DNA of 64,000 nucleotides from a bacterium (GCA_963693055.1 OY843751.1:3424001-3488000), one strand, 5' to 3'. Shown: positions 4,194-35,445, numbered from the stretch's first letter. Numbers and translations: made by a program. Notes: generated from the sequence alone by a model not told the origin.

Positions 4194-5450
4194 TTACTTG
4201 AATTTTTCCGCAACAACCTGGCTGATATGTTTGACCTGTACCGGCATTTTATTTTTTCTGGTACCAAATGCCAACTGCATTACACATGCAGGACAGGCTG
4301 TTACAAGCACATCTGCTTCTGTTGCTTTTACATTGTCCATTTTAATATCAAGGATTTCAAAAGACATTTCAGGATGCGCAATATTATAAGATCCGGCTCC
4401 ACCGCAACACATGTCTGCTTTATCCATTTCAATAAAATCAACATGAGAAAGAGTTTGCAGTATATTACGAGGAGCTTTTCTTTCTTTTAAATGATGCACC
4501 AAATGACAAGGATCGTGATATGTCATTTTGATCATTCTCCCGTTTGTGGGAAATTCAACATCATTAATATTTTCATTAATCCAGTTGGTCATGTCTTTAA
4601 ACTTGGCAGCAACTTTTTCTGCTCTTTTTTTCAAACCAGAATTTTCAGTGATTTCAGCGTAACTTTTAATAAATGAAGAGCAGCTCCCACAATCACTTAT
4701 AATTACATCTGCATCTGTTTTTTCAAGAATTTCAATATTCTTTTCAGCAAACCATTGAACTGAATCCAGATCTCCGTATGCATATGCAGGCAATCCACAG
4801 CAGACATTATCCAAAATCTCTACATCATAACCAAAGTTCTGCATTACTTTGATGCTTGCTTCACCAATATCAGGCTGCGCGTAATTTATACCGCATCCGC
4901 TAAAGTAGGCAATTTTGCCCCTGGCATTGGGAACCGTTATATTTTTTGCTCCCATTCGTTCACGAAGATTTTTAAACGGGATCTTTTCCAACAATTGTTC
5001 AGCATTGGCAAGGTTTCGACCAAACCATCCCAACACTCTAAATACCTGAACAATTTTTGACAAACCGCTGTTTTTACCAACGGATACCAGCTTCAGCAAA
5101 TTAGCCAACTCTTTGGGATGGCGTAATAGATGTTTAAAAATATACTTTTGTAAAGCCGGTTGGCCATATTTTTTAATATATTCATGTCTTGCATGTGCAA
5201 TTACATGATCAGTCTTGACCGATGGAAAACAATTGCTATAACAGGCATTACACATTAAACACTCGAATATCATCTCTTTGGTATCGCGTGTTAATTCGAT
5301 CTTGTTCTCAATAATACCGCGAACCAGCTGGTGCCTGCCCCGTGCTACCTGATGCTCTTTACCTGACACAACAAATGTAGGACAAGTGGGTTGACAAAAG
5401 CCACATTTGCTGCATGATATTACATCATTATATACATTCTCAATCGACAC
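4194..5450 (-). CDS. glcF: Glycolate/lactate oxidase Fe-S subunit (GlcF-like)
   Basis: Two CxxCxxCxxxC ferredoxin motifs and two CCG domains (CCGLP, YHDPCH...CCGGAG, TACPAC); adjacent to GlcD/GlcE homologs. Confidence 0.85.
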   Translation of the reverse strand: MSIENVYNDVISCSKCGFCQPTCPTFVVSGKEHQVARGRHQLVRGIIENKIELTRDTKEMIFECLMCNACYSNCFPSVKTDHVIAHARHEYIKKYGQPALQKYIFKHLLRHPKELANLLKLVSVGKNSGLSKIVQVFRVLGWFGRNLANAEQLLEKIPFKNLRERMGAKNITVPNARGKIAYFSGCGINYAQPDIGEASIKVMQNFGYDVEILDNVCCGLPAYAYGDLDSVQWFAEKNIEILEKTDADVIISDCGSCSSFIKSYAEITENSGLKKRAEKVAAKFKDMTNWINENINDVEFPTNGRMIKMTYHDPCHLVHHLKERKAPRNILQTLSHVDFIEMDKADMCCGGAGSYNIAHPEMSFEILDIKMDNVKATEADVLVTACPACVMQLAFGTRKNKMPVQVKHISQVVAEKFK

Positions 5451-5465
5451 GTTAACTACCTCTTG

Positions 5466-6719
5466 CTATATTCCATCAATAAACCGACCACCTGCAAATA
5501 CACCCTTGGGATCAAACTCCTGTTTCAATTTTCTATGCCAAATAGAATGGTCCGGCTGCACATCCCATGCGTCACATGAGCTCTCTGCAAACTCGGGTCC
5601 ATTAAAACATAAAAGCTTGCCCTCAAGATTATGCGCATGATTACGTAATTCTTGCAGAGTTTCTAATGTAAAACTATCTTTATCAATCCGGGCCAAAACG
5701 ATACCTTTACCCGGATAGCTTTCAATCTGCTTTGCAGAAAAACCAGCATCAGTATGTACTTGCTCCATTACTTCAGAAACTTTAGAAACCGGCACAATCC
5801 ATTTTAACAGTGTTTCTTTTTCAACATCCAATTTTTTTGATTGAAAGGATTCAAGATACTCATTCCATGATAAAGATTTCAGTTTACCAGTACTAAACAT
5901 ACTCTCCAGTTTGTTTTGATAAAATTCTTTCTCATTTGAAATACAGCCACATTCAACAAGCATTGATGTCTTTTGATCTTTTACAACACAGTTAAAAGCC
6001 AATAAAGGCAAGGCACTGGTATTTACCAGTTTTTGCACAGGCAGCATTTCTTTGGGTGAGTTGATATCCATTTCAACAACCAGAACAATCTCCGGGATGG
6101 GTGAAAGTTTTAGCGTCAATTCGGTAACAACTCCCAGAGTGCCCATAGCCCCAATGAATAGTTTAGCCATATCATAACCGGCGACATTTTTCACAGTCTT
6201 GCCGCCAAAGCGGATCTTGCTGCCATTTGCCAGTACCGCGCGACCGCCTAAAACCAGGTCTCGAAAAGTTCCATATCCTTCAATCCAGCTGCCATAAATA
6301 TTTGCCGAAACCAATCCACCAAGTGTCGCGGTTCCAGCACATGGATTTACCGGTAGCAACAATCCTTTTTCCCCGGCAATCTTTTGCAGTTCATCTAATG
6401 TCATTCCGCTACCAACACTGATTGTCAGGTTATCAGGTTCAAACTCGTTAACACCATTCAATAAACGTGTAGACAATGTAATATCATGAGCATTAAGCGG
6501 ATTACCAGGAATTTGATGCTGTCCGCTTCCCCAGATATTTACTACAGATCCTGAATGCGCGCATTCAGAAAGCAGATCGGCCATTTGGTCTACGTTTTCT
6601 GGTTCAATAACAGCAAAGGGAGATTTATTTTTTACTGAAAATTTATTACAGGTTTCCTGATCGAGATATATATGTTTGTGTTGAAATTTTTCAATCAAAG
6701 TTCGGGGATCATCAAGCAT
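5466..6719 (-). CDS. glcE: FAD-binding oxidoreductase (GlcE-like)
   Basis: PCMH FAD domain, GGKTVKNVAGYD, GAMGTLG, C-terminal FDPKG. Confidence 0.8.
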   Translation of the reverse strand: MLDDPRTLIEKFQHKHIYLDQETCNKFSVKNKSPFAVIEPENVDQMADLLSECAHSGSVVNIWGSGQHQIPGNPLNAHDITLSTRLLNGVNEFEPDNLTISVGSGMTLDELQKIAGEKGLLLPVNPCAGTATLGGLVSANIYGSWIEGYGTFRDLVLGGRAVLANGSKIRFGGKTVKNVAGYDMAKLFIGAMGTLGVVTELTLKLSPIPEIVLVVEMDINSPKEMLPVQKLVNTSALPLLAFNCVVKDQKTSMLVECGCISNEKEFYQNKLESMFSTGKLKSLSWNEYLESFQSKKLDVEKETLLKWIVPVSKVSEVMEQVHTDAGFSAKQIESYPGKGIVLARIDKDSFTLETLQELRNHAHNLEGKLLCFNGPEFAESSCDAWDVQPDHSIWHRKLKQEFDPKGVFAGGRFIDGI

Positions 6720-6729
6720 AAAATTGACC

Positions 6730-8118
6730 TTATTCTATCAAACCTTGTACAAATATTTTTCCGGGATTACAGAGTTTGGAAGGATCAAAAACCTGTTTTA
6801 CCTGCTTCATAGCATTCAAGTCCTGATCATTAAACAAATATTGCATTGCTTTACGTTTTTCCATTCCAACACCATGTTCACCGGTAATTGTTCCACCCAG
6901 ATCAACACACAACTGCATGATCTTTTCGCAGCCTTGTATTACTCTGTCGGTTTCTTTTAAATCGCGTTCATCATAAACAATAATAGGATGTATATTGCCA
7001 TCACCTGCATGTAACAATGTGCCGTATTGCAGATCATATTCTTTACAAATCTTGTCAATTTCAATCAAAGCAGTAGGAAGCTGATTACGGGGAACGGTTC
7101 CATCAAACACTACCAGAGATGGATTTAAACGCGTCATAGCACCCAAAGCTCCGCGTCTTCCGGCCCACAAAGCATCACGCTCTTCATCGTTACCTGCTAA
7201 TCGGATTTCTCCCGCATTATTATCCCTGCATATTTGTGTTATTACATCTACCTGTTTTGCCAGATTTTGGACAAAACCATCTACTTCTATAATTAAAATG
7301 GCAGCAGCATCAACCGGATAGTCTACATTCAAAGATTTTACTACAGTTCTGATACACAAATTGTCCATATATTCAAGAGTTGCCGGTATAATTCCACGTG
7401 CAATAATATCTGACACTGCCTGTGCTGCATGCTCAATATCATTAAATGAAACCAGCAGCGTTTCAAGACTTTCTGGTTTGGGTTGAATATGCAAAAACAA
7501 TTTGGTAACAATACCCAGGGTTCCTTCAGAACCATTCATAACACCAACAAAATCATAACCCGATGATTGAAATGTTTTACCACCAAACTGTACGGTTTCA
7601 CCATTGGGCATCACTATTTCTAATCCCAGAACATGGTTAACAGTAACACCATATTTTAAGCAATGAGGTCCACCGGCGTTCATAGCAACGTTACCGGCAA
7701 GTGTAGAAACTTTTTGACTGGCAGGATCAGGAGCAAAGAAAAACCCGTATTTACTCAAAGCATTTTGCAATTCAAGATTAAAAACACCCGGTTCTACAAC
7801 CGCTACCCTGTTTTCAATATCTATCTCGAGTATATTGTTCAACTTTGAGCATTCAATTACAATACCCCCCATTTCTGCAATAGATCCTCCACACAAGTTT
7901 GTGGCAGATCCTCTTGCAATGTAAGGAATTTTCTCAGAAACTGCGAGCTGTACAATTTGCTTAATATGCTCTGTTTCCAAAGGAAAAACAACAACATCCG
8001 GTTTGCCCAGTTCTATACTTGCGTCAAATCCATAAAGAAACAGGTCCAGATCTTTACATAAAACATTTTCCTTGCCGCAAATTGATATTAATCTTTTTAA
8101 GACAGACTTTTCCAGCAT
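6730..8118 (-). CDS. glcD: FAD-linked glycolate/D-lactate oxidase subunit (GlcD-like)
   Basis: PDPASQ, NAGGPHCLKYGVT, GSEGTLG, HAGDGNIHP, GEHGVG; start placed at ATG 8118 (MLEKSV). Confidence 0.9.
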   Translation of the reverse strand: MLEKSVLKRLISICGKENVLCKDLDLFLYGFDASIELGKPDVVVFPLETEHIKQIVQLAVSEKIPYIARGSATNLCGGSIAEMGGIVIECSKLNNILEIDIENRVAVVEPGVFNLELQNALSKYGFFFAPDPASQKVSTLAGNVAMNAGGPHCLKYGVTVNHVLGLEIVMPNGETVQFGGKTFQSSGYDFVGVMNGSEGTLGIVTKLFLHIQPKPESLETLLVSFNDIEHAAQAVSDIIARGIIPATLEYMDNLCIRTVVKSLNVDYPVDAAAILIIEVDGFVQNLAKQVDVITQICRDNNAGEIRLAGNDEERDALWAGRRGALGAMTRLNPSLVVFDGTVPRNQLPTALIEIDKICKEYDLQYGTLLHAGDGNIHPIIVYDERDLKETDRVIQGCEKIMQLCVDLGGTITGEHGVGMEKRKAMQYLFNDQDLNAMKQVKQVFDPSKLCNPGKIFVQGLIE

Positions 8119-8181
8119 TACTTTCTTTCTATTATAATTGACTTGTAAATATAACAAGCATGTGACAGGAAAACAAGCGCT

Positions 8182-8898
8182 TTATAATTTACCAAATAGA
8201 CTCTGGAATTTTAACTTCCAGACCATCCAAATGGCTTCGCGAAGTATTTTTTTAGACATTTTGGAAATACCGGCACGACGATCAAGGAAAATGATAGGAA
8301 TTTCACCCAGTGTAAATCCTTTTTTCCATGCCTTGTAACTCATTTCAATCTGAAATGAATACCCATTAGATGTTACTTTATCGAGATCTAAAGATTCCAA
8401 TACTTTACGATTAAAACATTTAAATCCGCTTGTACAATCATGAAGAGGCAAACCGGTAATAATGCGGGTATATAAACTGGCACCCATACTTAATAAGAGC
8501 CGACTCAATGGCCAGTTAATTACATTAACACCATTCACATAACGTGACCCCATAACCAGATCATAATCTTTTGCAGCATTGATCAGGTTTGGCAATTCTT
8601 TGGGATCATGTGAAAAATCAGCATCCATTTCGATCATGTAATCATAATCACGTTCCAGAGCATATTTGAAGCCGGCAACGTATGCTGTACCTAATCCTTG
8701 TTTGCCTTCCCGGCTCATCAGGTGAATGCGGGAATCATTTTCAGATAAACGGGTAACCAAATCACCTGTACCATCGGGAGAATTGTCATCTACAATGAGG
8801 ATGTCAAGATTTTCAATATTTTGTTCAAATACGGCAGAGACCAGGTTTTCAATATTTTCCCGTTCATTATAGGTTGGAACAATAACCAATGTTTTCAA
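8182..8898 (-). CDS. Polyprenol monophosphomannose synthase (GT2, DPM1/Ppm1-like)
   Basis: PTYNE, VDDNSPDGTG, GLGTAY, MDADFSH, GSRY, GYSFQIE. Confidence 0.9.
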   Translation of the reverse strand: MKTLVIVPTYNERENIENLVSAVFEQNIENLDILIVDDNSPDGTGDLVTRLSENDSRIHLMSREGKQGLGTAYVAGFKYALERDYDYMIEMDADFSHDPKELPNLINAAKDYDLVMGSRYVNGVNVINWPLSRLLLSMGASLYTRIITGLPLHDCTSGFKCFNRKVLESLDLDKVTSNGYSFQIEMSYKAWKKGFTLGEIPIIFLDRRAGISKMSKKILREAIWMVWKLKFQSLFGKL

Positions 8899-8916
8899 AG
8901 GCTACTCCGCGATAAA

Positions 8917-9801
8917 TTAATATGCCATATATTTTTTCAGACCTGTAATTACATCACTGAATTTCATATTCAATTCCGATTCGGCACGTTTTACAATCAA
9001 ACCTGAATTCAAAGGCCTTGGGGCTGCCTGGCCCAATTCTGCAGTTGAAATTGATTGTATTAATGAAGCATCAAGTTTATATAATTCAGCAATTTTAAGT
9101 GCAAATCCGTATCGGTTCACAATTTCACTTCCGGCCGTATTCAATGTACCCGAATATCCGGTTTTTACAACATTCCAAACAGCCGTTGCCAGTTCTTCAG
9201 CAAGCGTTGTATTGCCATATTGATCATTTACTATTCTTACCGTATTGCCGACCTTGAGCTGTCCTACCAGCCAATCGACAAAATTGGGTCTGGTATTCAA
9301 TGTGCGGCCATATAAAACCATGGTTCGTAGAATTGCAAAATCGATGGTAGAGCCCAACAATTCATTTTCAGATGCCAGTTTGCTTCTTCCATAATACCCT
9401 AATGGATTGGGACGTGCATCTTCATCATAGGGTCCGTTTTTACCATCAAATATATAATCGGTCGATATGTGGACAAGTTTAGCTTTGAGCTTGCGTGAAC
9501 AATATACAAGATTACTAACAAGATCCACATTGATCTTCCAGCAAGTTTCTTTATCTGTTTCAGCAGCATCAACATTGGTAAATGCTGCAGCATTAACAAT
9601 CACATTCGGAGATAATTCTTTAATCAATCTCCAGGCAAGGTCTCTATCAGTCAAATTCTTTTGAATATATTGATGATCTTCAAGAGCTACTCCCTTTTCA
9701 TGGACATCTATACCGATTATATTAGAATTATCTGGCTGTGTAAACACTAAATTTTGTCCCAGCAGTCCATTACATCCAGCTATCAATATCTTTTTTTTCA
9801 T
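8917..9801 (-). CDS. rfbD: dTDP-4-dehydrorhamnose reductase (RmlD/RfbD family)
   Basis: GCNGLLG, NAAAFTNVDAAE, HISTDYIFDG, YGRSK, DQYG, APRP; start at ATG 9801. Confidence 0.88.
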   Translation of the reverse strand: MKKKILIAGCNGLLGQNLVFTQPDNSNIIGIDVHEKGVALEDHQYIQKNLTDRDLAWRLIKELSPNVIVNAAAFTNVDAAETDKETCWKINVDLVSNLVYCSRKLKAKLVHISTDYIFDGKNGPYDEDARPNPLGYYGRSKLASENELLGSTIDFAILRTMVLYGRTLNTRPNFVDWLVGQLKVGNTVRIVNDQYGNTTLAEELATAVWNVVKTGYSGTLNTAGSEIVNRYGFALKIAELYKLDASLIQSISTAELGQAAPRPLNSGLIVKRAESELNMKFSDVITGLKKYMAY

Positions 9802-9805
9802 AGAA

Positions 9806-10264
9806 TCAGATCTTGCAGCCTTTATCACGGAACTGTTTCAACTTTACTTTAATACTTTCATTGGTAAGAGAAAGCATTTGTGCTACATAGATAGCAGCAT
9901 TTGCCGCACCGGCTTTACCAATTGCCATAGTAGCTACCGGTACACCTTTGGGCATTTGCACAATAGCATAAAGAGCGTCAACACCATTCAATGCGGAACC
10001 TGCTAGAGGAACACCAATAACCGGAACAGTTGTCATGCTGGCAATTACACCCGGTAAATGAGCTGCCATACCGGCACCTGCAATAATAGCAGAAAAACCA
10101 CGTGCTTCGGCATTTTTTGCAAACTCGGCAGTTTGCTCAGGGGTGCGATGTGCAGATAAAGTAAAAACTTCGCTTTCTATCCCAAAATATTGTAAATATT
10201 CTTTTGCAAGGGCCATTACTTCAGCATCTGAAGTACTTCCCATAACGATTGCTGCTTTTGGCAT
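9806..10264 (-). CDS. purE: N5-carboxyaminoimidazole ribonucleotide mutase
   Basis: MGSTSD, SAHRTP, AGAGMAAHLPG, QMPKGVPVA. Confidence 0.97.
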   Translation of the reverse strand: MPKAAIVMGSTSDAEVMALAKEYLQYFGIESEVFTLSAHRTPEQTAEFAKNAEARGFSAIIAGAGMAAHLPGVIASMTTVPVIGVPLAGSALNGVDALYAIVQMPKGVPVATMAIGKAGAANAAIYVAQMLSLTNESIKVKLKQFRDKGCKI

Positions 10265-10267
10265 TAT

Positions 10268-11326
10268 TTACTCCTGTTGCTTTTCAACTTGACCTTTAGT
10301 TCTAAATGTATGTGCAACGATGTCCAAGTGTCTTAAATAGGGCCATTTTCTTTCATCCGGAGCATAGACAGATCCATCAATTAAATATAAACGCTGATCG
10401 GATTCATTATAAAATCCATAACTCATGAAAGGACCACCGGCCACCAGTGAATCATTCTGCCAGATACCTTCCAGTTTAATGGCATAACGGTCCAGAAAAT
10501 TAACAACATCTTCTCTAACTTTGATATTATCATCTTCATATACTTCATCGCCGCTGTAATATTTTTTTGCCAATCTGGCTCGGGTTTCAAGCATCCATTC
10601 TTTACTCAATATAGAAGGATCTTCAACAGGTTCCCAGTAAACAAACAACTCACGCTGTGGACGCATTCTTCGTATCCAGACAAATCGATCTGAATCATTT
10701 TCCGTAGCAATAAACCATTCCAGGGGTACATCAACAGTCCAGCCATGGTTGTCCATAAGCTGTTTAACAAGTTCTTCCTGAGGTTCTCTAAAATACAACT
10801 GTTTTTTTACACGATAATTGGCATGTTCATCAAATGTATTAAAAATCAGATTATCATCATGTTTCAGGTTTTCAATCAGAGTAGCTTCATCTTTACCAAC
10901 AAGAATACCCAAAATTTGATCACGTGCCCAGGGTTCATCATATTGAAAGAAATATCTTTCATTGTCTTGAACCAGTTTGCGTGCTTCTGAATTTGGAGGC
11001 ATCATTTGGTCGAGCAAATTTTTGGTTTCCCCTTCCATATCCAGGGTACCGACAAACAATATCTGCGCGTAACGTTCCAAACGAGTAAATTCTTGAGGAG
11101 ATAACTGATTTAATGCAAAAATATATTCAGGTTGGGGTGTATAGCGTTCAGGAGAAAGCGCTTTCTTTACCTCGCCTTCAATATCTTGCCATAAAACTGA
11201 ATCAACTACAACGGCAATATTCCGGGTAGTCCCTCGGGACAAACTTTTCTGTTCACAGCCCGCAAAAACAATCAGGGTAAAGATAATCAGGGCTGCACCC
11301 AAATTTGTTAAATAATACTTTTTCAT
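10268..11326 (-). CDS. DUF4837 family lipoprotein
   Basis: Lipobox FAGC; TPQPE, WARDQ, GIWQ..GGPFMSY, VYAP..KW pattern; start at ATG 11326. Confidence 0.75.
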   Translation of the reverse strand: MKKYYLTNLGAALIIFTLIVFAGCEQKSLSRGTTRNIAVVVDSVLWQDIEGEVKKALSPERYTPQPEYIFALNQLSPQEFTRLERYAQILFVGTLDMEGETKNLLDQMMPPNSEARKLVQDNERYFFQYDEPWARDQILGILVGKDEATLIENLKHDDNLIFNTFDEHANYRVKKQLYFREPQEELVKQLMDNHGWTVDVPLEWFIATENDSDRFVWIRRMRPQRELFVYWEPVEDPSILSKEWMLETRARLAKKYYSGDEVYEDDNIKVREDVVNFLDRYAIKLEGIWQNDSLVAGGPFMSYGFYNESDQRLYLIDGSVYAPDERKWPYLRHLDIVAHTFRTKGQVEKQQE

Positions 11327-11339
11327 AAGTAACCCCATT

Positions 11340-12326
11340 TCAATCAATTTCAGGTTTTTTATGTTCCTTACGAAATGCAAAAATAATCCCGCCCGGTATT
11401 GTTGCAATAATACCTACCAGGTAGGCAATAAATTCAAAGGCTACAACTCTGGCTGAAGCAATACCAACCTGGGCAAACAACGTTACACCACTTTGTTCCC
11501 TGACACCAATACCACCCAGAGAAATGGGTAAACTTGCAGCCATTGCCACAATTGGGATAAAAATAAAGAAATAATATCCATCAATATTGACACCCACCGA
11601 ACGAGCAGCAAAAAGGTGAGTAAGTATCCTCAAAGATTGAACACCTATAGCAATTACAAATATTTCAATCAGCATTATCTTGTTATGCCTGAATTCATTC
11701 AAAGCATAATACAATTCTTTGAGTTTACCGGTCAGAAATTTAGGCAGCACTAGCTCGAATAAAAAAGAAAATTTTCTGGCAACATCTTCACGAAATAACA
11801 AATACAATCCTAAAATCCAGACCACAAATACAACACCAATGGTCAACACAGTCAATTGCGATGACAACCGCTGTAACCAGATCAAAGTAACAATCATAGC
11901 CAGAGACGTCAGTGCAAAAAAGCCAACAAACCGATCAAAAAAAACGGTCGAGATTGCACTATTGGTATCTCCGGATAATTTATGTATATCATAGATCCTA
12001 AAAGCGTCACCACCAACATAACCGATTAAAAAATTATTAAAGAACAAACCAACATGATAATATTTAATCGCTTTCCACAGTGAAATGTTCACTTTTTTCG
12101 ATTTCAAAAGTAAAAACCATTGAAAAGCGCCCAAAATATTACTGGTCACAAAAGTTAATATACTTGTTATAATCCAAAATGGATTGGCCGTAGTGATGTG
12201 CATCATCAATTGATGCACACCAATACGCGCCATTAAAAATATTAAAAGAGCTACACTAATACAAACTTTGAGAACAGTAACTAAAACCTGACGAGTGCTC
12301 TGTTTCTTGCTTTGATCTGCTGCCAA
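11340..12326 (-). CDS. Lysylphosphatidylglycerol-synthase-TM / UPF0104 (AglD-like) putative flippase
   Basis: About 8 TM segments, FFNNFL..VGGD, DRFVG, LPISLGGIGVRE; TTG start. Confidence 0.85.
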   Translation of the reverse strand: MAADQSKKQSTRQVLVTVLKVCISVALLIFLMARIGVHQLMMHITTANPFWIITSILTFVTSNILGAFQWFLLLKSKKVNISLWKAIKYYHVGLFFNNFLIGYVGGDAFRIYDIHKLSGDTNSAISTVFFDRFVGFFALTSLAMIVTLIWLQRLSSQLTVLTIGVVFVVWILGLYLLFREDVARKFSFLFELVLPKFLTGKLKELYYALNEFRHNKIMLIEIFVIAIGVQSLRILTHLFAARSVGVNIDGYYFFIFIPIVAMAASLPISLGGIGVREQSGVTLFAQVGIASARVVAFEFIAYLVGIIATIPGGIIFAFRKEHKKPEID

Positions 12327-12348
12327 CCGTTCATTCCTTCATAAAAGG

Positions 12349-15015
12349 TTAGTTTTGAACGGTCGCACTATCAGCACCTGCCGAACTTGCTTCATTCAAC
12401 AACTGTTTTTCTGATTCAAGTTTGCGTTTAGCTTCAGGATCATCAGGATGTTTCACAATCCAATCTTCCAGTAATTCAACCGCTTTGTCATGCATACCTT
12501 CACGACTGTATAGCTGGACCAAAGTACCTACAACATAGGTATTGTCTGGCTCATTTCTTAAAGCCCATTCCGCTTTTTCAACAAATTTATCAGTTTTACC
12601 TGCACGTTCATAGAGCAAGCCAATCTGAATGGGTAATCTTACATCTGGCGGCGGAATAACATCGTCAGGCATTACCGTATCCATTTTTTCCAATACGGTT
12701 AACAGATTTTCATAATCGCGATTGCTGTTATAATATGAAGCCAATTGCAGGAATGCTGCACGATAATTTTGCAGTAAACCTTTGGTATTATCGTTCAGAT
12801 AAACGTCAGGATCATTTAATCCACGGTATTGAAAAGTCTCCAGCATATTTTTATGCAGATTCCTGGCCATTACATCTTCATCCGGTTTTGGTGTTACCTC
12901 AAAACACATACCATCCATTCTCATATATCTATCGAGATTGATCTTGTTCTGATTGGAAACGGTAACCGCAAAATAGACCGGTTTTTGCCATTTGTTGGCA
13001 TATAAAATATTCAGGATCATAAAATCCTGTACACGGATTCCCTGGCCCATTATAGTGGGTTTTACAGTAAATGTAATTTCAGAAGGAATGCTGGTATCAT
13101 CAAATTGCTCCAATTCCTTTACTTCTTTGATATCACTCAGTAAATTCTGACGTTTTTGTTCAGGTACAGGAATAGAAATCGTGCGGTCAGCCCAGGGCAT
13201 TACCTGAAGCGCATCAATTTCCCTGTCTGATAATGTAATAGGTACTTTGGGATCTTCATATTTGAGCTGTTTAATATACCAGGGTGTATTTAGTAAACTT
13301 AGATTTACAACACGCACATCGGTACGGATACCATACACATATTGCAAGAACCACAGTGGAAACGTATCATTATCACCATTAGTAAACAGGATAGCATCTT
13401 TTTCACAGGTTTGTAATATATTATAAGAATAATCATAAGCCACATAATTACCGGTACGATCATGATCCTGGTAATTATTAGCCAGCAAATTGATAGGAGC
13501 AACCAACAACAATACAGCTGCTGTTGCTACCGACAATCCACGCCGCAATACCTGCTTGTCTTTGAAACTTTCCTGAATCATCTCAAGCAGGGCAGTAACG
13601 CCCATTCCTATCCATATCGCAAATATAAAGAACGACCCCACAAAGACATAGTCCCTTTCGCGTGGCTGGGGGTCCTCCTGATTCAAATAAATGACAATAG
13701 CAATACCCGTTAGAATAAAGAACGCAGTTAGAGACATGGCATGCCGCCAATGTCGATAAAAATGATGTATCATCCCCACAAGTCCAAGAAACAACGGCAG
13801 CCCCAATAATCCATTAAAGGATAGAGTTTCGACAATGTATCCATCAGATCCAATGGTGTTCCCCTTGCCAGCAAACTGCCAGAAAAAATAGCGTATGTAC
13901 ATTTTCTTTATTTGATAATTCCACATAAAATCCATTTGCTGTGACCAGTTAAAGGTCTTGTAGCTTTGACGAGGATATTGTTGTTCAAATTGCCATTCTT
14001 GTGGAATTCCGGGGAACCTGCGTGGAAACGTGCTCCAGGTTCCATATTGTTCACGATTCAGATAACTAACCATTTGCTTTGTGGTTTCCGGATCATTTTC
14101 ATCAATTTTGGGATCAAGTCCGGACCGAATATAAATCATAGAATAGGTTGAATATCCCATAATCACTAGTACAGCGGACATGAGTGCAAGACTGGCAATT
14201 TTCATTTTATTTTTAACTACATAAAAGACTGCGGCAAACAAAATCAAAATCAGCGCTAAAACGGCCCAAAGTGAAAACGCACCCGCTAAACGAGGAATGT
14301 ACTGTACAACACCGGGATATATGGCAGCAAAGATACCAACGGTTATGAGGCCAAATATTGCAAAGTTGGTAAAGGTAATTTTTTCATTTCGGCGTTCCAG
14401 GTAGCGAAAATAAACAATCATAAAGACAGCGGGTAATGCTAGAATCATTAACAAATGCACACCAATTGCAAGACCTACCGTATAAGCGATGAACAAAATA
14501 TAACGCTCAGCACCGGGTTCATCAGATTTTTCAAGCCATACCATAATCAACCACAGAATGATTGAAGTAAAAAACATACTGATAGCGTAAACTTCGGCTT
14601 CTACTGCATTGAACCAGAATGTATCAGTAAATGCAAATGCCAGTGCACCAATCAGGCCGCTGGCTACCAGGGTAAAAATATCTTCACCACTCTTGGGTTC
14701 GCCACGCCATTGTTTTACCAGGCGTACAATGATCAAATAGGTAAGCATTACGGTTGCGGCAGATGTTAATGCAGAAATAAAATTAACCCGCAAACCTATA
14801 TCCGTAGCAAAGGGAATCATGCTGAAAATACGTCCCAACAACAGATAAAACGGCGCACCCGGGGGATGAGGAATACCTAAAATATAAGAACAGGTAATAA
14901 ATTCACCACAGTCCCATAGCGACACAGTTGGCGCAATGGTTCTGAGATAAATAATGATTGAAAACAAAAAAGAAACACCGGCGAACACCCGGTTAATCAA
15001 CTTAAAGTTCTTCAT
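12349..15015 (-). CDS. DUF2723 GT-C membrane glycosyltransferase (TMEM260/GT117-like protein O-mannosyltransferase) with TPR-like C-terminus
   Basis: WDCGEF, HPPGAP, WFNAVEAEVY, YLNREQYG, PRERDY, FTNGDNDTFPLW, RVVNLSLL motifs; many TM segments. Confidence 0.88.
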   Translation of the reverse strand: MKNFKLINRVFAGVSFLFSIIIYLRTIAPTVSLWDCGEFITCSYILGIPHPPGAPFYLLLGRIFSMIPFATDIGLRVNFISALTSAATVMLTYLIIVRLVKQWRGEPKSGEDIFTLVASGLIGALAFAFTDTFWFNAVEAEVYAISMFFTSIILWLIMVWLEKSDEPGAERYILFIAYTVGLAIGVHLLMILALPAVFMIVYFRYLERRNEKITFTNFAIFGLITVGIFAAIYPGVVQYIPRLAGAFSLWAVLALILILFAAVFYVVKNKMKIASLALMSAVLVIMGYSTYSMIYIRSGLDPKIDENDPETTKQMVSYLNREQYGTWSTFPRRFPGIPQEWQFEQQYPRQSYKTFNWSQQMDFMWNYQIKKMYIRYFFWQFAGKGNTIGSDGYIVETLSFNGLLGLPLFLGLVGMIHHFYRHWRHAMSLTAFFILTGIAIVIYLNQEDPQPRERDYVFVGSFFIFAIWIGMGVTALLEMIQESFKDKQVLRRGLSVATAAVLLLVAPINLLANNYQDHDRTGNYVAYDYSYNILQTCEKDAILFTNGDNDTFPLWFLQYVYGIRTDVRVVNLSLLNTPWYIKQLKYEDPKVPITLSDREIDALQVMPWADRTISIPVPEQKRQNLLSDIKEVKELEQFDDTSIPSEITFTVKPTIMGQGIRVQDFMILNILYANKWQKPVYFAVTVSNQNKINLDRYMRMDGMCFEVTPKPDEDVMARNLHKNMLETFQYRGLNDPDVYLNDNTKGLLQNYRAAFLQLASYYNSNRDYENLLTVLEKMDTVMPDDVIPPPDVRLPIQIGLLYERAGKTDKFVEKAEWALRNEPDNTYVVGTLVQLYSREGMHDKAVELLEDWIVKHPDDPEAKRKLESEKQLLNEASSAGADSATVQN

Positions 15016-15030
15016 TATGGATCTCCGATA

Positions 15031-16149
15031 CTAATTAATTACATCCTCCATGATTCTCACAGCCGTCTCTGCGGACTGGTCCCAACTAAATTTTTGAACC
15101 CAATGTAAGGAATTTTTTGATAAATTTTGCCTTATTTTTTCATTTTTCAACAGAAAAATCATCTTTTCCTGCAATTTTTCAACATTTCCAAAAGGATACA
15201 GGTATCCGGTTTCGGTATCAACCACAGAATCCCGCAACCCGGGTGAATCTGCTGCAATAACCGGGGTACCACAGGCATTTGCCTCGATAACCGTCAATCC
15301 CCAACCTTCTTTGGGTGATGGATTAACAGCAAACCACATTTTATTCAACCACTCCACTTTTACCTCATGTGGAACAAAACCGGTAAAAGTAATCTTTTCT
15401 GCAACACCCAATTCATTTGCCAAGATCTCTAATTGAGGTTGATAGTCTCCTCCTCCCATTATAACAAAACGGGTTTCAGGAACCGCCTCAATTACCGCGG
15501 GCATTGCTTTTACAAAATGCTCAACCTGCTTGTACTTTTTCAAACGTCCCAGATAACCCACTAGAGGTGTCTGACTTTTTAATATCTCATCATATTTATA
15601 ATCATTCAATTCAACGGCATTATACAGTAGATCTATTTTGCTTTTCACACCGGAATTCAGCAACTCTTGCCGGGTACTTTCCGAAACCACGGCAAAAGGA
15701 GTGTTTCTATATACAAATGGTACAAGTTTCTCTGAATAATAAACATAACTCGCAGGGATAAAAAAAGTTTCCATAAAAATACTTTTGCCAAACAGGTGGT
15801 GCTCAATAGCAAGCAAAGGTTTCTTGACGTAATAGGGAGTATAAAATGGAATCTTGTTAATATCATCTATAACAATATCATAATCATGTTTTTTTAAAAG
15901 CTTTTTGTACATAAACGGTACATAAAAATTGAACAAATTTCGTGAACCCGCACGCACAATTCGGATTCCATCAAGTTCTTCATACTCGGCAGCACCAGGA
16001 TATTTACAACACAACAACGTTACCTTGTGCCCCAAAGCGGCAACACGCTTAAATATCTCATGAAAATGGACTTCTGCTCCCCCGCCAAAGGGATTGGTAA
16101 TATCCTGCCAGTTGATAACCAGTATGTTCAAAGGTTTACTTTTTGTCAA
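15031..16149 (-). CDS. Glycosyltransferase family 4
   Basis: GGAEVH, GRLKKYK, EGWGLTVIEANACG (EX7E). Confidence 0.92.
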   Translation of the reverse strand: MTKSKPLNILVINWQDITNPFGGGAEVHFHEIFKRVAALGHKVTLLCCKYPGAAEYEELDGIRIVRAGSRNLFNFYVPFMYKKLLKKHDYDIVIDDINKIPFYTPYYVKKPLLAIEHHLFGKSIFMETFFIPASYVYYSEKLVPFVYRNTPFAVVSESTRQELLNSGVKSKIDLLYNAVELNDYKYDEILKSQTPLVGYLGRLKKYKQVEHFVKAMPAVIEAVPETRFVIMGGGDYQPQLEILANELGVAEKITFTGFVPHEVKVEWLNKMWFAVNPSPKEGWGLTVIEANACGTPVIAADSPGLRDSVVDTETGYLYPFGNVEKLQEKMIFLLKNEKIRQNLSKNSLHWVQKFSWDQSAETAVRIMEDVIN

Positions 16150-16152
16150 AGA

Positions 16153-16932
16153 TCAAACCTTTTTCTTTTTACCAATGATACCAATGTCCATAAATGTATA
16201 CAAGGCAAAGCGGGTTTTGGCAAACGTCTTTTCGAAAGACTTGACAAGTGGAGATAATACCGGAACCGGTTTGGGATACAAAGGTAGCTGAATACCCACT
16301 TTTTTCATCACTTCACGCAATGAACGATAAAAAAAGCTGGGACGCATCCAGTCTCCATAGGATTTATGGATATCGAAACCCAATCCTTTGAACATTTTAC
16401 CGAGCTGTCCAATTGAAAATTCAGTTTCCCAACCGGCAAACCACTTGTTCATCAAGATGAGTATATGTTTAACAACTGTATATAAATGATATCGTTGTGG
16501 AACGTCTGCCAGTGTATAACCACCGGGTTTTATTACCCTGTGATTTTCTGCCAGAATATCCTGGGGATTGGTAAAATGCTCAAGTAATCCTTGATGATAT
16601 ACCAGATCCAAGGCATCGGTTTTAAACGGCAATTGAAAGGCATCGCCCTGCACCAGAATTACAGGTTTATTAAATTCCTGTGCCAGCTTTTTCAAAACAT
16701 CAAGCGAACTCTGCGCATAATCGAGCAATATGACTTTGGCACCCATATCCACAAGTTTAAATCCATCGCGACCTGAGCCAGCACCAATTTCCATTACCCA
16801 TTTATCTTGCATGGAACCCAATTCCCGAATCTGATTAATAATCCGGTCATTGTTAGAATATACATTATGTATATCTTTTTTATCTTCCCAAAAATCTTCC
16901 CAAACTTGTCTACTGTGTTTTCCCATTTCCAT
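16153..16932 (-). CDS. Class I SAM-dependent methyltransferase
   Basis: EIGAGSG motif I, GDAFQLPF, QGLLEHF, KPGG. Confidence 0.9.
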   Translation of the reverse strand: MEMGKHSRQVWEDFWEDKKDIHNVYSNNDRIINQIRELGSMQDKWVMEIGAGSGRDGFKLVDMGAKVILLDYAQSSLDVLKKLAQEFNKPVILVQGDAFQLPFKTDALDLVYHQGLLEHFTNPQDILAENHRVIKPGGYTLADVPQRYHLYTVVKHILILMNKWFAGWETEFSIGQLGKMFKGLGFDIHKSYGDWMRPSFFYRSLREVMKKVGIQLPLYPKPVPVLSPLVKSFEKTFAKTRFALYTFMDIGIIGKKKKV

Positions 16933-19346: not shown

Positions 19347-20699
19347 TTATTTAAAAAGAACAGTATATTCAAATTGAGTTTCGCCATTCGATGGCACTTT
19401 GATTTCAAACTCTACCTTGTGCGCTTCTTTTTTAGAAATTTTTGGAGTATCACCAATAAACTCCCAATCACCCCAAAGATTTTCTACAACATAAACAGTT
19501 ACAGCCTCATCCTTGTGGTTACGGAGTTTAATGCGTACCGTTTGCTGCCGACTTTCACGTCCAATTTTCTTGGTATCTACAACAATGCGTTCACCAACAA
19601 TATCAAATGCATCTCCCAGGTAAATGCGCACGGTTTCATCCTTGGGAGTATGGTCAATAGTATCTTCTCCAATAAACTCTTGAGATCCATCAACATCGGT
19701 TTTATACACCCGAATCTTGCCTTTTGGCAGCGGCATACCCAAACCATTATCTTTACTATTTTTCATCTCAAGGGTAACATTGACCTTGTTTTGCCTGTTG
19801 CCGTTAAAAGTATATATCTTTTTTACATCGGCACCGGCCGGGGGAAACAAAGAAAGTTGTTTAATTTGACGATCTTTGATTGTAGCGGGGCGTTGAAGCG
19901 TATATAAATGGTATTCAAAAAAGGATTTTTCTTCAAATTGCGGTTCAGCAGCTGCATATAAAACATCAGCTTTGGCCATACGGTCATAATTACGACGAGA
20001 TTCGGGTTGTTCAATATTCACATCTCCTGCAACCAGTTTTAGCTTGGCATTCTCATAGGTTGCTCCGGAATTGTTTTCAACAGAAACCCAGCCACTCATG
20101 TTTAGTGCGGTATCATCAGTATTTACCACAGCAACATACTCGGCATGCCAGTTGATGCCCCGTGTAAGATAGCTGATCTGAGCATTATAATCACCTGTTT
20201 TGGGGGAATCGAGAAGCCATACCAGTGTTGGCCGGGTTATCAAACCATCAGGTAATGAGGGAAATTCTACACTTTCAAGTGAAGTGGATTTTAATGCTTT
20301 TATCGTTCCATCAGATGTCTGAACGATGATATCACCACCCATTGCACTCAGCAACGTGCCATTTATGGTTCCACCGTCTTTGATGGTTGCAACAATATTC
20401 TGGTCAATATATTTTTCCAGTAATCTGTTTGTACCAACCAGATCATATTCATAATTCTGCTCAAGCATATTTACACTATTATTGCCTGAAACAGCTTTAA
20501 AATGCACAGATGTAGCATCAATTTGTGATGCAACATTGGTAAACCGAAAAGGTTTTACACCTTTTTCAAGAGATACATTACGAGAATCTCTTACAAGTGC
20601 CAAATTATCATTATATATTGTTACTGCCATATCATTAGCAAAAACAACCGCAGTAGACAGCAATAACAGCATAATTATAATTCCTTTTACTGTTTTCAT
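19347..20699 (-). CDS. DUF4139/DUF4140 domain secreted protein
   Basis: Signal peptide; VTIYNDNLALVRD, EQNYEYDL, YLTRGINW.AEY, EYHLYTL, LGMPLPKG. Confidence 0.85.
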   Translation of the reverse strand: MKTVKGIIIMLLLLSTAVVFANDMAVTIYNDNLALVRDSRNVSLEKGVKPFRFTNVASQIDATSVHFKAVSGNNSVNMLEQNYEYDLVGTNRLLEKYIDQNIVATIKDGGTINGTLLSAMGGDIIVQTSDGTIKALKSTSLESVEFPSLPDGLITRPTLVWLLDSPKTGDYNAQISYLTRGINWHAEYVAVVNTDDTALNMSGWVSVENNSGATYENAKLKLVAGDVNIEQPESRRNYDRMAKADVLYAAAEPQFEEKSFFEYHLYTLQRPATIKDRQIKQLSLFPPAGADVKKIYTFNGNRQNKVNVTLEMKNSKDNGLGMPLPKGKIRVYKTDVDGSQEFIGEDTIDHTPKDETVRIYLGDAFDIVGERIVVDTKKIGRESRQQTVRIKLRNHKDEAVTVYVVENLWGDWEFIGDTPKISKKEAHKVEFEIKVPSNGETQFEYTVLFK

Positions 20700-34075: not shown

Positions 34076-35068
34076 CTACTTAATCAAGAAGGCCTTTTGT
34101 GTTAACATTTGATTATTTGCTTTTAATATCACAAGGTACATTCCTGAAGGAAGCGAATTCCCTGCATCATCTTTACTGTCCCATTGAACATTATAACTTG
34201 AAGCGGATTGGGTACAATTTGACAATTCCCGTACTTTTCTTCCGTTTATATCATATACACTCAATTCAACCTGTGCTTGTTCGGCGAGTGTATAGCGTAT
34301 ATGGGTTTGTGGATTAAAGGGATTCGGATACAAGGGCAAAAGTTCTGTTGTTTCAGGTATCTCTGCAACTGTACTGCAAACAGTGCCGCATACATGCAGA
34401 TCACCGGAATAACTGACATCGGAAAGACGGTAAAACCAGGTTGTACCGGGTTGAGCGGACGTATCTCGAAAAGTATACTCTTTGGGACTGTCGATTGTTC
34501 CCCGCCCGGCAAGTTCAGAATGTGTTTCATAGGAAACAACAACCTGCCAATCAGGATTTGTAATATTCCTTGTACGCTCAAGAATAAATCCCAGGTTATT
34601 GGATTCTGTTTCAGTTCTCCACGAAACAACAATGGAACCTTGCTCCCGTGTTGCAGAAAAAGAAATCAGCTCTACCGGTAATGATGTATCAAAAGTAAAA
34701 TCCCATGTGTCGGAATAAGCACCGGTTCCGGCTACATTTACAGCACAAACCCGCCAATAGTAATTATTACTTGTGACCAATTCACCGGCATCATAGGTGG
34801 ATTCGTTTAAACCGGACTCGTTCACAACATATGAATCAAAATTAGATGCTAATGATACTTGCAGTATATAGCTTGAAGCATGATCAAGATCATTCCAGTC
34901 CAGAACGGATAAAGCGGTTCCGCTATGATTGGCCGGGGTGGATAAAACCGGTTGTGCCGGTGGTAATGATGTCAGAGAACCAGTCCCGGAATTACCATAA
35001 CCGGTATCTGCCAATACATTAATACCAGACAAAAAGACTAAAAATGCAAAATAAAACCATTTTGGCAT
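34076..35068 (-). CDS. Secreted FN3/Ig-domain protein with C-terminal T9SS-A/FlgD-Ig type sorting tail
   Basis: GGGAGG RBS, ATG 35068, YYWRV FN3-like domain, LPVELISFSA, YPNPFNP...VYDING...WDSKD..G..LPSGMY. Confidence 0.85.
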   Translation of the reverse strand: MPKWFYFAFLVFLSGINVLADTGYGNSGTGSLTSLPPAQPVLSTPANHSGTALSVLDWNDLDHASSYILQVSLASNFDSYVVNESGLNESTYDAGELVTSNNYYWRVCAVNVAGTGAYSDTWDFTFDTSLPVELISFSATREQGSIVVSWRTETESNNLGFILERTRNITNPDWQVVVSYETHSELAGRGTIDSPKEYTFRDTSAQPGTTWFYRLSDVSYSGDLHVCGTVCSTVAEIPETTELLPLYPNPFNPQTHIRYTLAEQAQVELSVYDINGRKVRELSNCTQSASSYNVQWDSKDDAGNSLPSGMYLVILKANNQMLTQKAFLIK

Positions 35069-35445
35069 AGTGCCTCCCAATAAAATAAAAAAAGTAAAAA
35101 GATATAAAAAAATATTAATAATTTTTTTGCTACCCATAATCTTTGACAAATTAACCAAATTTAATCAAAAAAACAAAAATTATTATTTTCCAGTCACAAC
35201 TGAAAAAGATTCATTATAAAGATTCTGAATTGATTAAAGCACGGTGGGATATTTATAACTACTGACATCAACAAAGATTTTATTGGCTTATAAAAACCCC
35301 AAATTACAAGATATGAATAAAGAATAGTGATGCATTAAGAGCAAACACCCAGGCCTGTCCAAAGGCATTGCAGATTAGATGATACTGTGAAAATAATTGG
35401 GTATATTGTAAATTAAAAATTGGGATATTAATTATGAATTAAATC

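Follow-up and report, generated by a model that had tools for sequence, protein, structure and literature searches.

The locus and its TMEM260-like transferase

We report on eight adjacent minus-strand genes (Table 1) within a 64,000-nucleotide stretch of bacterial DNA (GCA_963693055.1 OY843751.1:3424001-3488000, referred to at its full length as the window), which is part of a 6.5 Mb, single-contig genome of an uncultured bacterium that we infer to belong to candidate division KSB1. Their central element is an 888-amino-acid (aa) membrane protein, encoded in single copy in this genome and related to human TMEM260 (i.e. to the DUF2723 or PF11028 enzymes of CAZy family GT117), which is accompanied by a methyltransferase, a GT4 glycosyltransferase, a UPF0104 membrane protein, a DUF4837 lipoprotein, purE, an RmlD-like reductase and a DPM1-like GT2 (dpm). 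A previous interpretation of this DNA (hereafter the sequence-only reading) had regarded the eight genes as a candidate for one complete protein O-mannosylation cassette. All eight open reading frames (ORFs) proved real, with the span (8182-16932) and order claimed, and Pfam and NCBIfam profile searches of the window ORFs bore out the family labels, the RmlD-like protein alone falling just below its equivalog cut-off. Of the interpretation itself, the nature of the enzyme, the donor synthase, the linkage of a glycosyltransferase and a methylase to the transferase, and protein as the likely acceptor were upheld, while the closed cassette and the roles given to its members were not. The best-supported unit (methyltransferase, GT4 and TMEM260-like transferase) is smaller than eight genes.

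The 888-aa protein scores 225 bits against PF11028 (curated cut-off 24.2), carries TPR_14 (a tetratricopeptide repeat, TPR) by profile and 11 predicted transmembrane (TM) segments by hydropathy, and its structure model (mean predicted local distance difference test, pLDDT, 93.7) displays a GT-C fold with a beta-alpha soluble lobe and a helical tail. Outside the TPR region, human TMEM260 (9RQL) was the sole solved relative retrieved by sequence (E 1.9e-18 with the single sequence, 1.8e-32 with a profile), and D35, H50 and D548 align with human D52, H67 and D441, being invariant in 99 of 99 alignment rows. According to a preprint on the structure of the human enzyme (10.64898/2026.03.17.711096), D441 is the catalytic base, D52, H67, R264 and Y267 are essential, R355A retains about 20% activity, and the TPR region contacts the acceptor peptide. 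Since the human structure assigns these roles to D441 and D52, D548 is the predicted base of the window enzyme and D35 a predicted donor-binding residue. The proposed relationship to TMEM260, with an acidic WDCGEF loop (residues 34-39) and a TPR-like tail, was confirmed by sequence comparison, whereas the loop as the seat of the catalytic base was not supported: D35 is conserved (for donor binding), and the predicted base is D548.

PF11028, 11 TM segments, the soluble lobe, the TPR tail and the equivalents of D52, H67 and D441 are common to the window enzyme and human TMEM260 (9RQL/9RQM/9RQN; PMC10214176). The window enzyme differs in being bacterial and 888 aa long, in its poorly conserved TPR part (2 of 153 columns at 90%), in its linkage to a glycosyltransferase and a methylase (the human mannose being unextended) and in the lack of the human sequon in the ORFs. 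A human-type IPT substrate was accordingly rejected, as the sequon P-x5-P-x3-G-P-x2-G/A-G-G-x2-T/S gave 0 strict matches in 4462 ORFs. In PMC10214176 bacterial homologues are mentioned as distant only, and a literature search on DUF2723, GT117 and TMEM260 in bacteria, on Bacteroidota O-glycosylation and on KSB1 glycosylation (covering subscription papers thinly) retrieved no assigned bacterial function. As far as these comparisons go, the 888-aa protein is an uncharacterised bacterial variant of GT117 whose predicted catalytic residues are intact.

In a Foldseek search of the model, protein oligosaccharyltransferases occupied ranks 1-16, and fold comparison gave Z scores of 23.2 for STT3 (root-mean-square deviation 4.6, 435 aligned), 21.2 for the lipid A-modifying ArnT (4.7, 444 aligned), 20.8 for ALG12 and 20.8 for Pmt; TMEM260 (9RQL) was not among the matches listed in two fold searches. 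STT3/PglB/AglB and ArnT share the GT-C fold with the window enzyme, from which they differ by an identity of only ~11%, by the absence of a match in the sequence searches and by their acceptors. The sequence homology to TMEM260 (including the soluble-lobe base D441), the presence of a TPR tail (which in TMEM260 binds acceptor peptide), the Foldseek ranking and the near-universal, mostly single-copy occurrence of the family in the phylum argue against an enzyme that decorates an envelope lipid or polysaccharide (ArnT-like or GtrII-like), the motif bias described below then stemming from another, unlinked enzyme; we consider this very unlikely, even though ArnT lies within about 2 Z of STT3 and lipid modification systems usually have three parts, namely a GT-C enzyme, a flippase-like protein and a GT2 donor synthase. 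UPF0104/PplT is, moreover, called a phospholipid translocase domain, with flippase evidence that is partly indirect (10.1101/2022.03.11.483950), which would likewise suit a lipid acceptor.

Table 1. Genes and residues of the locus (window coordinates)
Feature	Position	Strand	Remarks
SAM (S-adenosylmethionine) methyltransferase (Methyltransf_11)	16153..16932	-	predicted cytoplasmic; in exchangeable three-gene module
GT4 glycosyltransferase	15031..16149	-	predicted cytoplasmic; marker of locus type A
TMEM260-like (GT117, DUF2723) GT-C enzyme, 888 aa	12349..15015	-	PF11028 + TPR_14
D35 of WDCGEF = human D52 (predicted donor binding)	14911..14913	-	aligned to 9RQL
H50 of HPPG = human H67	14866..14868	-	aligned to 9RQL
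D548 of NGDND = human D441 (predicted catalytic base)	13372..13374	-	aligned to 9RQL
UPF0104/PplT membrane protein	11340..12326	-	PF03706/TIGR00374; candidate, non-obligatory flippase
DUF4837 lipoprotein, likely glycosylation substrate	10268..11326	-	conserved D-S-V at 11195-11203
purE (purine synthesis), bystander	9806..10264	-	TIGR01162 above cut-off
RmlD-like NDP-sugar reductase	8917..9828	-	TIGR01214 212.8 bits; candidate pathway member
DPM1-like GT2, predicted polyprenyl-phosphate-mannose synthase	8182..8898	-	5MLZ match; likely donor synthase

An exchangeable glycosyltransferase and methylase module

PF11028 was detected in 144 of 151 genomes of the phylum, mostly in single copy, and in one of 14 control genomes (B. 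thetaiotaomicron). We took approximately 20 kb around the gene from 80 of the 143 other positive genomes, picked for long contigs and family spread, and restricted the counts of each neighbour to loci that contain it or whose flank is long enough to show it. Type A loci (42, window-like) carry a methylase and GT4 upstream of the transferase, the Methyltransf_11 methylase adjoining the GT4 in 41/42 (and in 0/35 type-B loci), while type B loci (38) have a 350-aa GT2 downstream in 36 of 37 cases, followed by a different methylase in 24/35. Whole-genome searches recovered the GT4 orthologue in 9/9 type-A controls (396-491 bits) and in 0/38 type-B genomes (best 92 bits), and the GT2 orthologue in 9/9 type-B controls and in 0/42 type-A genomes; nor was the latter found in the window genome. 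All 80 sampled KSB1 genomes possess one of the two glycosyltransferases and none both, nearly always touching the transferase (genome counts of the types are not independent, owing to kinship). Across KSB1, the methylase-GT4 pair is thus interchangeable with an unrelated GT2, often together with a different methylase.

The type label changes four times on the RecG tree (67 rows, at least three changes being forced) and twice on the transferase tree (96 rows). Uniting all type-B rows in one group was rejected for RecG (p 2e-59) but not for the transferase (p 0.18), and since a single clade of the four type-B families in the window's class stands on RecG (not rejected, p 0.21), about two swaps are secure. 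One genome (G021) has its methylase, GT4 and transferase placed with family f6 (approximately unbiased, AU, p 1.7e-4), and its dpm, UPF0104, DUF4837, DUF4139 and RecG with its home families (purE weakly so), from which we conclude that the moved unit comprised these three genes. This joint move, together with the adjacency in type-A loci, substantiates the linkage of glycosyltransferase and methylase to the transferase that had been proposed from the sequence.

The same genes can be read differently, i.e. the transferase would put a single mannose from polyprenyl-P-mannose on D-S/T-hydrophobic sites, with GT4, GT2 and the methylases serving another lipid-linked glycan and being merely adjacent. 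The active-site columns are invariant over type A, type B and non-KSB1 sequences, the transferase would be swept along by any recombination between the genes on either side, PF11028 shows a wider co-distribution with dpm than with either glycosyltransferase, and the human enzyme is a single-mannose transferase. We nevertheless regard this explanation as unlikely, given that each of the 80 genomes has exactly one of the glycosyltransferases in near-constant contact with the transferase, that GT4 and methylase flank the transferase, in a different order, in an Ignavibacteriales locus (L063), and that the residual glycan of Bacteroidota mutants is a disaccharide, which supports a disaccharide core that is preassembled and transferred first (PMC8729774).

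Beyond KSB1, GT4 orthologues occur in 60 of 121 Ignavibacteria-class genomes and in 8 of 12 genomes of another phylum. The type-B GT2 has reciprocal full-length orthologues in two Flavobacteriaceae genomes and one Balneola genome (3/5 tested), and was not found in 10/10 Ignavibacteria-class genomes, with or without GT4. Searches of the PDB returned no specific function for GT4 or the methylase. The locus L063 (2164-7878) holds transferase, methylase, a GDP-mannose 4,6-dehydratase gene (gmd) and GT4, in this order. This gmd prompted us to consider a GDP-6-deoxyhexose (D-rhamnose or fucose) as GT4 donor, a candidate that was rejected (the complete window genome yielded no gmd, which was detected in only 11/40 type-A and 12/35 type-B genomes). 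The GT4 and methylase pair (15031-16932) may resemble mycobacterial Rv0225/Rv0224c. In Corynebacterium, a putative glycosyltransferase and the methylase MtrP are reported to lie near AftD.

Use of the D-S/T-hydrophobic motif in exported proteins

Bacteroidota O-glycosylate proteins at D-S/T-A/I/L/V/M/T, a motif whose range is documented further in PMC10897501 and PMC12645811, and the B. fragilis core is alpha-2-O-Me-Rha-alpha-Man-O-Ser/Thr (PMC8698959). With the ORFs of the window genome sorted into export classes by a heuristic of our own, D[ST][AILVMT] was found to be over-used in lipoproteins (332 vs 247 expected, observed/expected 1.35, z 5.4, rank 1 of 20 first residues), under-used in soluble signal-peptide proteins (703 vs 822 expected, 0.86, rank 20 of 20) and in barrel-like proteins (0.69), and neutral in cytoplasmic ones (1.02). 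When all exported proteins are taken together the ratio comes to 1.03 (i.e. no net enrichment), so that the signal lies in the spread. Per-protein dispersion of the motif reached 1.81 in exported proteins (n=1072), with 0.98 in cytoplasmic proteins and 0.92-1.09 for control motifs; partial comparison genomes gave 1.57 for Paucihalobacter (800 kb, n=119; a member of Flavobacteriaceae and on that ground taken to be positive), 2.46 for a type-B KSB1 genome (400 kb, n=35) and 0.80 for E. coli K-12 (800 kb, n=54). Among 383 non-paralogous proteins the dispersion was 1.73 (shuffles 0.93 +/- 0.09, maximum 1.15; K[ST]h and G[ST]h, the runners-up, 1.28), the internal-repeat filter of this test having flagged 0 proteins and being possibly ineffective. 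The motif test on the fetched loci was set aside because orthologues recur there. That the motif is over- and under-used in exported proteins only favours protein as the acceptor, as the sequence-only reading had supposed, and indicates that a Bacteroidota-type O-glycosylation system would be active in KSB1.

The DUF4837 lipoprotein had been suggested as a periplasmic partner of the transferase. Its ORF spans 10268-11407, with a probable start at the ATG at 11326 and the lipobox FAGC, and its 60 orthologues contain 112 sequons against 44 expected, the D-S-V site of Table 1 recurring in 37/60. The conserved sequon, this richness in sequons and its absence from some loci (family f3) speak against a partner role, and the protein is by its sequence a likely glycosylation substrate. 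Other observations on the motif concern the DUF4139 family (window 19347-20699), which strongly avoids D-S/T-hydrophobic sites (20 vs 74 expected, 61 orthologues), and ORFs of the window genome near 3102162, 6387673, 6356744 and 2512477 (G000:C1), which encode exported proteins packed with them. A FlgD/T9SS-like C-terminal domain was recorded in 249 proteins (window 34076-35158 and genome-wide), in which DSL is the most enriched Ser/Thr-centred tripeptide (2.37-fold).

Surrounding genes, proposed pathway and implications

A run of 17 co-directional genes starts at valS and has the eight genes at its centre, and the intergenic gaps are all at most 24 bp from DUF4139 (20699) to a LOG-family gene (2516). 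A promoter and terminator scan was uninformative (69 promoter-like sites vs 55.8 +/- 7.7 expected; 11 terminator-like vs 13.5). The phylum-wide order is valS, DUF4139, recG, DUF1844, transferase, UPF0104, DUF4837, purE, rmlD and dpm, with locus presence in KSB1 of 69/75 for recG, 61/72 for DUF4139, 58/73 for valS, 62/68 for dpm, 51/63 for rmlD, 59/74 for DUF4837 and 56/74 for purE. The self-contained, complete cassette could not be sustained, as it lacks boundaries of its own, shows no more synteny than the housekeeping genes (valS, recG, purE) and is not conserved as a cluster beyond KSB1. Elsewhere (56 loci, among them those of Ignavibacteria, Kapaibacterium, Balneola and Flavobacteriaceae) the transferase is usually found next to a ROK kinase, a rhomboid, rpsD, a polysaccharide deacetylase or YbeY, and only two loci (L063, L085) keep methylase or GT4.

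The best solved relative of dpm is the Pyrococcus furiosus Dol-P-Man synthase 5MLZ (E 2.4e-33; next ArnC, 7.6e-11), whose catalytic GT2 domain it matches over its full length (residues 1-229), differing in having no TM domain. Searches of further genomes recovered a single-copy dpm orthologue in 17/18 from KSB1 and in 4/4 others with PF11028, but none in E. coli. This homology and co-distribution with PF11028 agree with the donor synthase envisaged from the sequence, and dpm is likely to make polyprenyl-P-mannose. UPF0104 (PF03706 120 bits, TIGR00374 65.4 bits, above the profile cut-off) is present in 41/41 type-A loci with sufficient flank and in 15/36 type-B loci, but searches that recovered its orthologue in 4 controls (at least 226 bits) failed to detect it in 20 type-B genomes, where distant paralogues alone turned up, and in 4 non-KSB1 genomes. 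A role as the obligatory flippase is thus not supported, and we retain it as a candidate, dispensable one.

The RmlD-like protein (TIGR01214 212.8 bits vs cut-off 224.05) is still the best RmlD-like match in the genome, and rmlB and rmlC lie elsewhere in it. The anticipated rhamnose link turned out to be weak, for RmlC was found in 45/75 genomes and not found in 30/75 (9/40 type-A, 21/35 type-B), and the RmlD-like gene persists beside dpm without RmlC, also where both have parted from the transferase. A role of the type-B GT2 as dTDP-L-rhamnose transferase, tried as a candidate, is weakened by the finding of RmlC in 14/35 type-B genomes. A bifunctional RmlD-like epimerase-reductase could explain the scarcity of RmlC.

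No signal peptide or TM segment is predicted for the methylase, GT4, the RmlD-like protein or dpm. Since both SAM and nucleotide sugars reside in the cytoplasm, as these enzymes are predicted to do, GT4 and methylase would be unable to extend a periplasmic, protein-bound mannose (as had been assumed for the GT4) and would act at the lipid-linked stage. These results bear on the full eight-gene pathway of the sequence-only reading, in which UPF0104 is the flippase, GT4 extends protein-bound mannose, RmlD supplies rhamnose and DUF4837 acts as partner. The phylum-wide gene order, the constancy of UPF0104 in type A, the tie of the RmlD-like gene to dpm even away from the transferase and the presence of rmlB and rmlC in the genome would fit it; it is at odds with the missing operon boundary and equally syntenic housekeeping genes, the predicted cytoplasmic location of GT4 and methylase, the type-B genomes without a UPF0104 orthologue, the patchy RmlC, a DUF4837 that is sequon-rich and absent from family f3 loci, and the retention of methylase or GT4 in just 2/56 non-KSB1-type loci. 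The full model is already weakened by its dispensable members, and is the least probable of the explanations considered here.

Several further features of the loci were noted. Three glcDEF-like oxidase genes follow dpm (window 4194-8157), a placement shared by just three close relatives (G097, G085, G093), and represent a recent insertion into the gene run. In many KSB1 loci (L137, 13138-15461, and others like it) purE is separated from rmlD by genes for a xanthine/uracil permease and a PfkB kinase, so that still more housekeeping functions fall within the presumed cassette. A 690-aa protein in which GT2, CoA_binding_3 and Bac_transf domains are fused is encoded ahead of accA (G000:C1:3819206-3821281, beyond the window; L137:17136-19265; L301), stands directly after dpm in many KSB1 loci and one Ignavibacterium locus, is detached in the window genome, and constitutes another candidate pathway member. 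Tandem duplicates of the transferase occur in several KSB1 families and in both locus types (L151, L156, L159-L162, L164-L166, L168, L175, L182, L183, L186-L188, L190). A KSB1-type locus with 64-72% identity was met in L040, L042, L033 and L037 (titled Calditrichota, Actinomycetota or Cytophagia), and the titles of these records are probably wrong.

On this basis we propose the following pathway. The DPM-like GT2 would make polyprenyl-P-mannose at the cytoplasmic face (judging from homology), whereupon GT4 would add a second sugar and the methyltransferase would O-methylate while the glycan is still lipid-bound (as suggested by cytoplasmic location and tight linkage). The lipid would then be flipped, possibly (and here the indications are weak) by UPF0104 in type-A genomes, and in the periplasm D548 would activate the Ser/Thr hydroxyl, with D35 and H50 holding the donor and the glycan being transferred with inversion (the residues are those observed in the alignment, the chemistry is extrapolated from human TMEM260). 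We consider it probable that the transferase O-glycosylates proteins at D-S/T-hydrophobic sites, whereas the fuller model, in which it starts Bacteroidota-type O-glycosylation with a glycan that dpm, GT4 and methylase assemble on the lipid, is in our judgement evenly poised between right and wrong.

Apart from the pooled motif ratio, the heuristic export classes, the small partial genomes and the modest number of secure swaps given above, the following points weigh against this reading. The human enzyme adds one mannose that is left unextended (10.64898/2026.03.17.711096), and human R264, Y267 and R355 could not be mapped (the region is unaligned to 9RQL and a regional profile yielded no TMEM260 match), R297, R452 and R454 of the transferase being invariant and merely positional candidates for them. 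The fold cannot name the acceptor, since STT3, ArnT, ALG12 and Pmt lie within ~2.5 Z. Co-location is little informative, because recG and DUF4139 are as syntenic as dpm, and the sequon bias points to the presence of a system without identifying the responsible enzyme. A search for type-specific transferase residues ended with one column alone, contradicted by G021, and as there is almost no such residue the transferase may have been hitchhiking in the swap. Outside KSB1, GT4 lay beside the transferase in 2/6 genomes checked, and the rule of exactly one of the two glycosyltransferases fails (5/5 GT4-negative Ignavibacteria-class genomes also lacked the GT2).

The window genome and the Bacteroidota system have in common the motif, whose bias is confined to exported proteins, as well as a methylase and a donor synthase of the mannose type, and the type-B GT2 has Flavobacteriaceae orthologues. 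It differs in its host phylum (KSB1), in being known from genes alone and in having a GT4 in the place of the Bacteroidota-like GT2, for which reason its core glycan may differ. According to a 2025 review (PMC12871550), the Bacteroidota LFG locus (metG, wzx and glycosyltransferases) serves the outer glycan, the core flippase, oligosaccharyltransferase and ligase are undiscovered, and homologues of eukaryotic O-mannosylation are proposed as a place to look. A bolder reading, which we put forward tentatively and hold to be somewhat doubtful, is that DUF2723/TMEM260-like proteins are the missing Bacteroidota O-oligosaccharyltransferase, reaching into KSB1 and related phyla and transferring a methylated disaccharide, assembled beforehand, from a polyprenyl monophosphate. 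KSB1 would then keep ancestral core-glycan genes together, with the type-B GT2 as core sugar transferase and methylase-GT4 as makers of a second core not described before, and human TMEM260 would be the single-sugar descendant of a bacterial general glycosylation enzyme.

What is new here is the GT4/GT2 swap, which suggests that the core glycan exists in two alternative forms, and the motif test across the genome, the signature of which suggests that the system extends beyond Bacteroidota. In Bacteroidota the DUF2723 gene has unrelated, uninformative neighbours, whereas in KSB1 the transferase sits with candidate partners, and the KSB1 locus thereby points to three genes that can be tested in Bacteroidota amenable to culture (those for the DUF2723 protein, the DPM-like synthase and the type-B GT2), besides giving a mutation target (D548) and sequon-rich substrates. 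The question of the Bacteroidota core machinery, stated as open in PMC12871550, is made directly testable, and the TMEM260-like transferase is likely to catalyse the opening reaction of a protein O-glycosylation pathway that is widespread among bacteria.

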